DNA of 64,000 bases from Escherichia coli (GTDB taxonomy: Bacteria > Pseudomonadota > Gammaproteobacteria > Enterobacterales > Enterobacteriaceae): the NCBI RefSeq assembly GCF_017348835.2, contig NZ_CP071375.1. The stretch is one strand, 5' to 3'. Positions within the stretch are counted from its first letter, which is position 1; every line of letters starts with the position of its first letter. Shown one piece after another: positions 9,532 through 47,087 of this stretch. The notes under the pieces were generated by a model. It was given only the letters and a program-made list of their open reading frames with translations. It was not told the origin of the DNA and did not search any database. The translations under genes and the position numbers were made by a program.

Positions 9532-11942
9532 TTGCACGCTGGTTCTGGCGCGAATGGCGTTCGCCGTCGCTATTAATTGTCTGGCTGGCGCTAAGCCTGG
9601 CGGTGGCCTGCGTGCTGGCGCTGGGCAATATCAGCGATCGCATGGAGAAGGGCTTAAGCCAGCAAAGCCGTGAGTTTATGGCGGGCGATCGGGCGTTGCG
9701 CAGTTCGCGCGAGGTGCCGCAAGCGTGGCTGGAGGAAGCGCAAAAGCGCGGCCTGAAAGTCGGCAAGCAGCTGACTTTCGCCACGATGACATTTGCAGGC
9801 GACACACCGCAGCTGGCGAATGTCAAAGCGGTGGATGATATCTACCCGATGTATGGCGATCTGCAAACCAATCCCCCCGGCCTGAAACCACAGACGGGCA
9901 GCGTATTGCTGGCCCCACGCCTGATGGCACTGCTTAACCTGAAAACAGGCGACACCATCGACGTGGGTGATGCCACTTTGCGGATTGCCGGAGAAGTGAT
10001 TCAGGAACCGGATTCCGGTTTTAACCCCTTCCAGATGGCTCCGCGTCTGATGATGAATCTGGCGGATGTCGATAAAACCGGAGCCGTGCAGCCGGGGAGT
10101 CGGGTCACCTGGCGCTATAAATTCGGCGGCAGCGAGAACCAGCTCGACAGCTATGAGAAATGGTTGTTACCTCAGCTTAAACCCGAACAACGCTGGTACG
10201 GTCTGGAACAGGACGAAGGCGCGCTGGGGCGATCGATGGAACGCTCGCAACAGTTCCTGCTGCTTTCGGCGCTTCTGACCTTGCTGCTGGCAGTGGCAGC
10301 AGTGGCGGTAGCGATGAATCATTACTGTCGCAGTCGCTACGATCTGGTGGCGATCCTCAAAACGCTGGGGGCAGGGCGAGCGCAACTGCGTAAGCTAATC
10401 GTCGGTCAGTGGTTGATGGTGCTGACGCTTTCAGCCGTTACCGGCGGGGCGATAGGCCTGTTGTTCGAAAACGTGTTGATGGTGCTGCTCAAGCCCGTTC
10501 TGCCTGCTGCACTACCGCCAGCCAGCCTCTGGCCGTGGCTATGGGCGCTGGGCACCATGACGGTCATCTCGCTGCTGGTGGGGCTACGACCATACCGCTT
10601 GTTGCTGGCAACGCAGCCTTTACGCGTATTACGTAATGATGTGGTAGCGAACGTCTGGCCGCTGAAGTTTTATCTGCCGATTGTCAGTGTGGTGGTTGTG
10701 CTGCTGCTCGCCGGATTAATGGGGGGCAGTATGCTGCTCTGGGCGGTGCTGGCGGGCGCGGTAGTACTGGCTTTGCTATGCGGTGTGCTGGGCTGGATGC
10801 TGCTGAATGTACTTCGCCGCATGACGCTGAAATCGCTGCCTCTGCGCCTGGCGGTTAGCCGCCTGTTACGTCAGCCGTGGTCAACGTTAAGCCAGCTTTC
10901 GGCATTTTCGCTCTCCTTTATGCTGCTGGCACTGCTGCTGGTGTTGCGTGGCGATCTGCTCGACCGCTGGCAGCAGCAGCTACCTCCAGAAAGCCCGAAC
11001 TACTTTTTAATTAACATCGCCACAGAACAGGTAGCACCGCTAAAAGCGTTCCTCGCGGAACATCAGATAGTCCCGGAATCGTTTTATCCGGTGGTGCGGG
11101 CGAGACTGACGGCGATTAACGGCAAGCCGACAGAAGGCAATGAAGATGAGGCGCTCAATCGCGAACTCAATCTTACCTGGCAAAATACGCGGCCCGATCA
11201 TAATCCGATTGTCGCCGGTAACTGGCCGCCAAAAGCCGATGAAGTGTCGATGGAAGAGGGGCTGGCGAAACGCTTAAACGTTGCCCTCGGTGATACCGTG
11301 ACTTTTATGGGCGATACCCAGGAGTTCCGCGCTAAAGTGACCAGCCTGCGCAAAGTGGACTGGGAAAGTCTGCGGCCTAATTTCTATTTTATTTTCCCTG
11401 AAGGGGCATTAGACGGGCAACCGCAGAGCTGGCTTACCAGTTTCCGCTGGGAGAATGGCAACGGCATGTTGACGAAACTCAACCGCCAGTTCCCTACCAT
11501 TAGCCTGTTAGACATTGGCGCGATTTTAAAACAGGTCGGTCAGGTGCTGGAGCAGGTAAGTCGGGCGCTGGAGGTGATGGTGGTGCTGGTCACCGCCTGC
11601 GGTATGTTGCTGTTGCTGGCACAGGTGCAGGTGGGAATGCGTCAGCGTCATCAGGAGCTGGTGGTGTGGCGCACACTCGGTGCGGGGAAAAAACTGCTGC
11701 GTACCACGTTGTGGTGTGAGTTCGCCATGCTTGGGTTTGTTTCCGGCCTGGTGGCCGCAATTGGTGCGGAAACGGCACTGGCAGTGTTGCAGGCGAAAGT
11801 GTTTGATTTTCCGTGGGAGCCAGACTGGCGATTGTGGATTGTTCTGCCGTGCAGCGGTGCGCTGCTGCTGTCGCTTTTCGGCGGCTGGCTGGGTGCGCGA
11901 CTGGTTAAGGGTAAGGCGCTGTTCAGGCAGTTTGCGGGGTGA
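9528..11942 (+). CDS. ybbP: FtsX-like ABC transporter permease YbbP
   Basis: 804 aa; duplicated FtsX-type membrane domains; start overlaps ybbA stop. Confidence 0.9.
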   Translation: MIARWFWREWRSPSLLIVWLALSLAVACVLALGNISDRMEKGLSQQSREFMAGDRALRSSREVPQAWLEEAQKRGLKVGKQLTFATMTFAGDTPQLANVKAVDDIYPMYGDLQTNPPGLKPQTGSVLLAPRLMALLNLKTGDTIDVGDATLRIAGEVIQEPDSGFNPFQMAPRLMMNLADVDKTGAVQPGSRVTWRYKFGGSENQLDSYEKWLLPQLKPEQRWYGLEQDEGALGRSMERSQQFLLLSALLTLLLAVAAVAVAMNHYCRSRYDLVAILKTLGAGRAQLRKLIVGQWLMVLTLSAVTGGAIGLLFENVLMVLLKPVLPAALPPASLWPWLWALGTMTVISLLVGLRPYRLLLATQPLRVLRNDVVANVWPLKFYLPIVSVVVVLLLAGLMGGSMLLWAVLAGAVVLALLCGVLGWMLLNVLRRMTLKSLPLRLAVSRLLRQPWSTLSQLSAFSLSFMLLALLLVLRGDLLDRWQQQLPPESPNYFLINIATEQVAPLKAFLAEHQIVPESFYPVVRARLTAINGKPTEGNEDEALNRELNLTWQNTRPDHNPIVAGNWPPKADEVSMEEGLAKRLNVALGDTVTFMGDTQEFRAKVTSLRKVDWESLRPNFYFIFPEGALDGQPQSWLTSFRWENGNGMLTKLNRQFPTISLLDIGAILKQVGQVLEQVSRALEVMVVLVTACGMLLLLAQVQVGMRQRHQELVVWRTLGAGKKLLRTTLWCEFAMLGFVSGLVAAIGAETALAVLQAKVFDFPWEPDWRLWIVLPCSGALLLSLFGGWLGARLVKGKALFRQFAG

Positions 11943-11958
11943 TGACAGGTGTTAGATT

Positions 11959-12057
11959 GCCTGATGCGCTACGCTTATCAGGCCTACGAAGAGCGTGCAA
12001 TATATTGATTTTGCAAGATTGTGTAGGCCAGATAAGGCGTTTACGCCGCATCCGGCA
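11959..12057. repeat. REP elements downstream of ybbP
   Basis: gcctgatgcgctacgcttatcaggcctac and tgtaggccagataaggcgtttacgccgcatccggca. Confidence 0.65.
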
Positions 12058-12159
12058 TGAACAGTGTGCATTTTGGCAATAAATCTGAAACCAACTGTCA
12101 TGTCGGTTTTTTTAAAGGCCGAAGGTGGTAAACCTTCGGCCTTAGCTACGTTTCCTCAG

Positions 12160-12243
12160 TTATTCAATAAACTGACGGATCAGTTCCAGCAGCGCGATTA
12201 GCGCCTTAAGAACGATGAGAACTTTATCGAGAAAAGTTTTCAT
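12160..12243 (-). CDS. candidate 27-aa hydrophobic peptide (type I toxin-like): MKTFLDKVLIVLKALIALLELIRQFIE
   Basis: ATG at 12243-12241 preceded by GGGAG 6 nt upstream; SD lies in palindrome CTCCCttaaGGGAG (12250-12263); TAA stop followed by GC hairpin ggccgaaggtttaccaccttcggcc; not in ORF track (below 60 aa). Confidence 0.35.
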   Translation of the reverse strand: MKTFLDKVLIVLKALIALLELIRQFIE

Positions 12244-12380
12244 CCGTTGCTCCCTTAAGGGAGAAAGACAATCACAGCTTACCCTTACGTTGCCTGTAAC
12301 TATGATTTTCTTCATGTGCTAGATGAGGAATGTTTCATTTCTGCCCGGAACCACCAAGTCTTGGGCGGAAAAAATAAAAA

Positions 12381-12406
12381 AACCGACTGTCATGTCGGTT
12401 TTTTTA
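12381..12406 (-). terminator. hairpin plus U-run downstream of mnmH (A-run/T-run flanked, likely bidirectional)
   Basis: aaaaaaaccgactgtcatgtcggttttttt: stem ccgac/gtcgg, loop tgtcat. Confidence 0.5.
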
Positions 12407-12468
12407 TATCTGTATTCTGGTGCAACCATTCTGTTCTCACGACAATCGCCGTTTCAGAATACCGCCCA

Positions 12469-13578
<1,110 letters not shown>

Positions 13579-25370: not shown

Positions 25371-25490
25371 CCCTTACCTTTAAAGCGGATGCGATTTATA
25401 TCGCATAAGAGTGCAGTACTCATGCCGGATGCGGCATGAGTACCATATCCTTCCTGAAAATCGCGCAAATTCTATATATTGCAGAGATCA

Positions 25491-25521
25491 TGTAGGCCTG
25501 ATAAGCGAAGCGCATCAGGCA
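25491..25521. repeat. REP element
   Basis: tgtaggcctgataagcgaagcgcatcaggca. Confidence 0.6.
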
Positions 25522-25528
25522 ATGTTAC

Positions 25529-25555
25529 AAAAAAAGCCACGGTATAAACCGTGGC
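25529..25555 (-). terminator. intrinsic terminator downstream of ylbA/allE
   Basis: Minus-strand reading gccacggtttataccgtggc followed by TTTTTTT. Confidence 0.6.
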
Positions 25556-25597
25556 AAAATCCAACATAGCTAAAAATAATCAGGCGAGTGGTATGAC

Positions 25598-47010: not shown

Positions 47011-47087
47011 GCGCCCTTAGCTCAGTTGGATAGAGCAACGACCTTCTAAGTCGTGGGCCGCAGGTTCGAATCCTGCAGGGCGCGCCA
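47011..47087 (+). tRNA. argU: tRNA-Arg (anticodon UCU)
   Basis: 77 nt gcgcccttagctcagttggatagagcaacgaccttctaagtcgtgggccgcaggttcgaatcctgcagggcgcgcca; cloverleaf with anticodon loop cuUCUaa. Confidence 0.95.

Follow-up and report, generated by a model that had tools for sequence, protein, structure and literature searches.

Paired agr-type terminators probably bound a predicted DinQ/AgrB-family toxin–antitoxin cassette in the polymorphic ybbP–mnmH interval of Escherichia coli

Introduction

The closest described relatives of the locus analysed here are the type I toxin–antitoxin modules of the dinQ/agrB kind, in which the 5' end of a small RNA pairs with the leader of the toxin mRNA and blocks the active, translatable form of that mRNA, as established experimentally (PMC3567139, PMC5066626). 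The same leader-pairing mechanism has been demonstrated experimentally for the plasmid-borne dqlB/agrB pair (PMC12365149). In E. coli K-12, dinQ-agrAB lies between arsR and gor (Weel-Sneve et al. 2013, PMC3567139), and dinQ-like (dql) genes form a family present on both the chromosomes and the plasmids of enterobacteria (Kristiansen et al. 2016, PMC5066626).

Here we analyse a pair of direct repeats and the segment between them in a 64-kb stretch of E. coli DNA (the window, to which all coordinates refer), between the convergent genes ybbP and mnmH. A first-pass annotation of the window had offered two descriptions of these repeats, as a duplicated terminator or as the scar or target of an insertion or deletion, and had connected them with the Rhs element that K-12 carries at this place. 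Our own reading, to which we assign a probability of roughly 0.8, is that they are twin terminators bounding a cassette of the DinQ/AgrB family, copy 2 being derived from an agr gene and copy 1 being a duplicate of it, with no link to Rhs. Below we document the identity of the parts of the cassette, its distribution, its junctions and its alleles.

Results

A repeat search between positions 11000 and 13500 returned a single direct-repeat family, consisting of copy 1 at 12088-12114 (AAACCAACTGTCATGTCGGTTTTTTTA) and copy 2 at 12380-12406 (AAACCGACTGTCATGTCGGTTTTTTTA), with a start-to-start spacing of 292 nt. The repeats of the first-pass annotation are therefore real, as is the single mismatch reported between them (26/27 identical), but each copy is 27 nt long and extends one base further to the left than the 26 nt originally noted. 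A degenerate search allowing up to three mismatches found only these two copies across the 64-kb window, and none in 100 dinucleotide-preserving shuffles of it. Copy 2 lies inside a perfect 14-bp palindrome (12374..12407, both strands), recovered by the inverted-repeat and terminator scans; it passes the intrinsic-terminator scan on both strands, with folding energies of -17.5 and -16.9 kcal/mol. In copy 1, to which no strand was assigned, the plus-strand stem is interrupted by an A.C mismatch, is followed by seven Ts and failed the terminator scan, whereas on the minus strand a G.U wobble at the same position leaves a continuous 8-bp stem, which passed. The description of each copy as a hairpin with a T-run thus holds, with that reservation for the plus strand of copy 1; the full signature of a Rho-independent terminator, a GC-containing hairpin followed by a T-run, was found in copy 2 on both strands and in copy 1 on the minus strand only. 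Judged by these features, the repeats are two copies of one predicted Rho-independent terminator. Copy 2 is the putative terminator of an AgrB-like RNA on the plus strand and of mnmH on the minus strand, and copy 1 may act on the plus strand as a weak predicted terminator for ybbP, a poor one at best. The sequence of copy 1, including its single A/G difference from copy 2, was fixed in 11 of 11 cassette-bearing genomes sampled.

The small open reading frame that had been noticed between the copies is a predicted DinQ-family type I toxin gene, belonging to a family that is already catalogued. It occupies 12160..12243 on the minus strand, encodes the 27-residue peptide MKTFLDKVLIVLKALIALLELIRQFIE, and is preceded on that strand by a Shine-Dalgarno sequence, GGGAG, at 12250-12254. 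The assignment rests on NCBIfam and RefSeq: the 27-aa peptide scored 40.9 bits and the 51-aa open reading frame 38.4 bits against NF041472 (toxin_DinQ), whose cut-off is 30, and the toxin peptide falls outside the DqlB family as modelled by NF041473 (24.5 bits against a cut-off of 35). A Pfam-A scan of the 51-aa open reading frame gave no match; PF28061 (DinQ) is precomputed for a protein 98% identical to the window toxin. The locus of strain PE164 is identical to that of the window, and there RefSeq/PGAP places a dinQ gene (WP_349808740.1) at the same coordinates. The peptide, a putative toxin, is hydrophobic and helix-like on inspection. The RefSeq annotation of the gene varies, the product being either the 27-aa WP_349808740.1, a 51-aa protein starting from an upstream ATG (WP_001308457.1), or missing altogether. 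A 28-aa variant, MKTFLDKVLIVLKALIALLELIRQLLNN, is found on 11 contigs and joins the N terminus of the cassette toxin to a canonical-DinQ-like C terminus (...QLLN); this variant could be a recombinant of the two paralogues or the result of a frameshift.

Downstream of the toxin gene, an inverted repeat at 12115..12143 on the minus strand forms a GC-rich hairpin with 12-bp arms and a 5-nt loop, the putative terminator of the toxin mRNA itself. It lines up with the terminator hairpin of K-12 dinQ and with the TTACGTTTCC that follows that hairpin, and a hairpin of this type was seen in all other dinQ/dql modules examined. In the cassette, the hairpin is followed by only UUU and then a run of As, and copy 1, the second agr-type terminator hairpin, directly abuts it. 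Upstream of the toxin gene, the remaining 3' part of its 5' untranslated region spans 12244..12316 (minus strand), as placed by alignment with a longer allele of the cassette (L002), and is collinear with the 5' untranslated region of K-12 dinQ.

On the plus strand, 12319..12407 corresponds to an AgrB-family antisense RNA gene, the putative antitoxin, which has no promoter in this allele. The match to Rfam RF02891 (AgrB) reached 52.6 bits against a gathering threshold of 40 and is full length, covering model positions 1-84; the long allele scored 53.6 bits. In the Rfam alignment, the terminator stem of the model falls on copy 2, which is, by homology, the predicted terminator of the antitoxin. 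The similarity continues past the terminator into the right flank of the cassette (12408..12453, no strand assigned), the first 14-16 nt of which resemble the sequence following the K-12 agrA terminator (ATATCTGTATTCTGG in the cassette, ACATCCGGATTCGG in K-12). Because the toxin scores above the DinQ cut-off and the antisense RNA matches AgrB, the segment between the repeats is, in terms of family membership, a predicted DinQ/AgrB-family type I toxin–antitoxin module.

Almost all cassette-bearing genomes carry a form 185 bp longer than that of the window, as in L002: the cassette is 384 bp long in the window, compared with about 570 bp in this common long allele. In the long allele, a near-consensus promoter (TTGAAA-16-TATAAT, 11/12 positions) stands directly upstream of the AgrB-like gene, and there are two copies of the 16-nt sequence TGCTAGATGAGGACTG: one lies in the toxin leader and serves as the AgrB target, the other forms the 5' end of the AgrB-like gene. 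The two agree at these 16 bases and then diverge by C/T differences still compatible with G.U pairs, and the predicted duplex of small RNA and leader has an energy of -56.8 kcal/mol; the K-12 agrB/dinQ control gave -65.5 kcal/mol. Collinearity of the long allele with the dinQ-agrA unit of K-12 begins at the toxin terminator hairpin and continues until about 16 nt beyond the agr terminator. Both loci have a GC-rich toxin terminator hairpin, a hydrophobic 27-aa toxin with the core ALIALLELIR, a long 5' untranslated region, a DNA repeat through which the small RNA is complementary at its 5' end to the toxin leader, and a divergent small RNA with its own promoter and a AAAAAACCGAC...GTCGGTTTTTTT terminator.

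The cassette differs from K-12 dinQ-agrAB in several respects. It has one agr gene where K-12 has two, its terminator loop reads TGTCAT instead of GCAAA, it has a further agr terminator beyond that of the toxin, and it occupies a different, variably filled chromosomal site in about 24% of genomes; the window allele has, in addition, lost both promoter regions. The cassette also lacks the LexA box: a search of the long allele L002 for CTGT-N8-ACAG with at most one mismatch found none, whereas the same search recovered the known K-12 box, so the long allele has no LexA operator overlapping the toxin promoter of the kind that marks the SOS-regulated dinQ. Cassette-bearing genomes also keep the canonical dinQ-agrAB locus, and the cassette is an additional, apparently non-SOS dinQ paralogue in about a quarter of strains. 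The dqlA/dqlB loci (PMC5066626) and the DqlB-agrB addiction module of pOXA-48 (PMC12365149) have the same architecture and an AgrB-family small RNA. Cassette DNA is 67-78% similar to dqlB loci on about 1800 plasmids, and the C termini of the two toxins are closely alike (LELIRQFIE in the cassette, LELIRQFID in DqlB); however, DqlB has 31 residues with an inserted segment, whereas the cassette toxin has 27 and scores under the DqlB cut-off.

The limits of the cassette were set by alignment of the window with L002, L003 and three ybbP–mnmH intervals that lack the cassette (L005-L007). The whole cassette (GTGCA|...|CAGAAT; no strand assigned) spans 12070..12453, being present here and absent from the empty ybbP–mnmH sites. 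This indel contains both repeat copies and extends beyond them by 18 nt on the left and 47 nt on the right, has no duplication at its edges, and leaves neither copy behind at the empty sites. A target-site duplication or scar would place the copies exactly at the indel boundaries; because both lie inside the indel, they are internal parts of the cassette rather than a target-site duplication at its edges. Between the ybbP stop codon (11940-11942) and the cassette, and outside the latter, lie palindromic units of the REP/BIME type (11955..12060, no strand assigned), which are also found in the empty sites L005 and L006 and are absent from L007. This stretch gave sub-threshold Rfam matches to the REP-derived ES036 and naRNA4, and a query that included it had a median of 25 match places per genome. 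Among the empty sites, L005 has one REP/BIME block, L006 has two and L007 has none, a different sequence following the ybbP stop directly in L007. Elsewhere in the window, the Rfam gathering score was exceeded by ES036 (25457-25499) and STnc480 (25525-25591) and, at 47011-47084 and 3386-3463, by a tRNA and a naRNA4/REP-derived element.

Across 5,426 complete E. coli genomes, the cassette was present in the ybbP–mnmH interval of 1326-1332 (~24%). The two genes lie within 900 bp of each other in 1899 of the 5426, which leaves, by subtraction, about 570 genomes with an empty site; they are more than 900 bp apart in about 3,520 genomes, and all three of these that were examined (K-12 and two O157:H7 strains) carry an Rhs island. 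The interval is thus a three-state polymorphic site, holding an Rhs island, the DinQ/AgrB-type cassette or neither. The cassette was found on chromosomes only and, with hardly an exception, between the convergent genes ybbP and mnmH. One 1.2-Mb record labelled as an E. coli plasmid (CP061270.1) contains the cassette at 99.5% identity and is probably chromosomal sequence filed as a plasmid.

K-12 carries rhsD where the window carries the cassette, as the first-pass annotation had stated: the MG1655 map lists rhsD, ybbC, ylbH, ybbD, ylbI and ylbG between ybbP and selU/mnmH. This coincidence of position is what suggests that the repeats might be the scar or the target duplication of an Rhs insertion or deletion. 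When the junctions were aligned, no repeat copy was found at either end of the island in K-12 or in a typical O157:H7 strain (L137). In both, the ybbP stop is followed immediately by the island (TGATGAGAG|TAAATAAGG), which runs to the mnmH stop codon and takes the place of the whole intergenic region, REP sequence included; the island is unrelated in sequence to the cassette, and a search of the 10-kb K-12 locus for the repeat, with up to three mismatches allowed, found none. The homology of the repeats to the AgrB terminator likewise argues for an origin other than Rhs. One junction points the other way: in O157:H7 TR01 (L010 5990-6040), the island joins, at its right end (...CTCTCAACCT), the right flank of the cassette from window position 12420, 13 nt beyond copy 2, in place of the K-12-type segment of 60 nt, whereas typical O157:H7 has the K-12-type junction. 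TR01 is, however, among at most six genomes with some cassette sequence but no core, and the point of fusion lies outside the repeats. We therefore regard a connection of the repeats with the Rhs indel as largely refuted and extremely improbable. Of the two earlier descriptions, that of a duplicated terminator was the right one; that of a scar or target is not supported for the Rhs indel and survives in a different sense, as the repeats were apparently the substrates of another deletion, seen in two genomes with a single hybrid copy.

With a loop of 5-6 nt, the stem AAACCGAC...GTCGGTTTTTT has at least 120 exact matches in unrelated bacteria, for example Pseudomonas, Colwellia and Bacteroidota, and stem identity alone is therefore uninformative about homology; among the matches listed for species-representative genomes with the pattern AAACCRACN{5,6}GTCGGTTTTTT, only the canonical agrB of E. 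albertii and a prophage terminator were relevant. Because the 6-nt loop TGTCAT is common to both copies and differs from that of every other agr terminator seen, copy 1 is a recent duplicate of copy 2. The possibility that copy 1 and its left flank represent a truncated second agr gene was considered and rejected as unsupported: local alignment of the 18 nt left of copy 1 with eight agr gene bodies gave no significant similarity (p = 0.40 against shuffles). No counterpart of copy 1 was found in K-12 dinQ, in three plasmid dqlB-agrB modules, which unlike the cassette have no terminator copy left of the toxin hairpin, in Salmonella modules or in two chromosomal modules of Yersiniaceae, all of which otherwise have the same architecture and an AgrB match.

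The arrangement of the repeats would also admit a role at the RNA level. Toxin mRNA reading through its weak first hairpin would run into copy 1 and end in a 3' hairpin able to kiss the terminator hairpin of the AgrB-like RNA. The complementarity that this would use is extensive, at 26 Watson–Crick pairs and one G.U, the loops AUGACA and UGUCAU being complementary, and it follows directly from placing direct repeats on a divergently transcribed pair. The A/G difference, constant in the sampled genomes, spares the hairpin of the minus strand and breaks that of the plus strand, and copy 1 stands where other modules have a U-rich tail after the toxin hairpin. If true, such a contact would be a second, 3'-end antisense interaction unique to the cassette, beyond the 5'-leader pairing of DinQ/AgrB. 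Against this, any duplicated palindromic terminator produces such complementarity automatically, and the other dinQ/dql modules have no such element and are nevertheless functional (PMC3567139, PMC12365149). We consider a kissing role for the two hairpins very unlikely, and return to the reading of the copies as twin terminators.

Three kinds of deletion allele were found. In the first, that of the window, 185 bp between the 16-nt repeats have been lost. The junction is the single surviving copy of the 16-nt repeat at 12317..12332 (no strand assigned), as seen by alignment with the long allele (TGCTAGATGAGGACTG; L002 769-970), and it reads ...GGAATG, whereas another short allele (L133) reads GGACTG. 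The deletion has removed the promoter of the AgrB-like gene and the upstream part of the toxin leader, together with the region expected to hold the toxin promoter; with both 16-nt copies collapsed into one, the small-RNA gene is simply antisense to the truncated leader. A search of window positions 11800-12600 for promoter-like sites found none, leaving the AgrB-like gene without a sigma-70 promoter of its own. Because the antitoxin promoter and the expected toxin promoter region are both deleted, the module in the window is probably transcriptionally dead. Three genomes have this junction, PE164, F2_81 and the O157:H16 isolate Res13-Lact-PEA12-26; PE164 and F2_81 are the only ones with a one-piece junction among the best-ranked matches of the 1326 genomes.

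A separate deletion of 107 bp, carried by about 200 genomes, L003 and L004 among them, has removed the start codon and Shine-Dalgarno sequence of the toxin gene. Its ends lie at GATGAGAAC in the open reading frame and GATGAGGAC in the leader, corresponding approximately to window positions 12215-12320. In genomes with this deletion, PGAP calls a 25-aa 'dinQ' in some and nothing in others.

The third allele is a solo terminator. A synthetic query composed of the left flank of copy 1, one repeat and the right flank of copy 2 was matched at 168/168 positions, in one piece, by the baboon isolates PapM-32-1 and PapRG-04-4, both of which carry the A variant of copy 1 and the left-flank haplotype of the window; subtraction of the cassette and core counts bounds the number of solo genomes at 2 to 5. 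The existence of genomes with exactly one copy between these flanks, and the lack of a counterpart of copy 1 in any other dinQ/dql module examined, would also be expected if the solo form were ancestral and the core had inserted into a bidirectional terminator of ybbP and mnmH, duplicating 27 bp as a target site. However, homology to the K-12 agrA/agrB terminators and their flanks extends over copy 2 and about 14 nt beyond it, and copy 2 aligns within the full-length AgrB model; as copy 2 is agr-homologous, the terminator arrived with the antitoxin gene. The solo genomes are, moreover, few against the roughly 1326 that retain the core, their left-flank haplotype is that found in one subset of the cassette genomes, and in truly empty sites the terminator is missing altogether. 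Because the terminator and right flank are agr-derived and empty sites lack the terminator, we infer that the solo form is the derived product of recombination between the repeats rather than an ancestral target, which we hold to be unlikely. The cassette is decaying by at least three independent repeat-mediated deletions.

Discussion

Of the functional readings of the repeats, insulation appears to be the most economical. In this reading, copy 2 would end the AgrB-like RNA and would also stop read-through from mnmH from transcribing the toxin gene, while copy 1 would stop read-through from ybbP from running antisense across it; on the minus strand, copy 1 would in addition back up the weak terminator of the toxin. 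As direct repeats, the copies may recombine, excising the core of the cassette and leaving one hybrid terminator in a few genomes, and the separate deletion between the 16-nt repeats would silence the window allele. The intergenic site itself holds either the cassette or the Rhs island, or is empty.

The module family is known and already annotated, and what is new here is minor, namely the pairing of two terminators and the range of alleles in decay, and leaves the current understanding of type I systems unchanged. The twin terminators are a small architectural variant which, if insulation is the correct reading, shows how a toxic module may be shielded from the read-through of its neighbours; the terminator duplication also makes the module easy to lose. 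The practical value of these findings lies in annotation and population genetics.

Among the other enterobacterial modules compared, the genomic settings are diverse. The dinQ-like/AgrB modules of Salmonella were found beside an integrase and an SprT-like gene and inside a conjugative-transfer gene cluster, and the chromosomal modules of Yersiniaceae lie between an oligopeptide-permease-like operon and a beta-galactosidase gene.
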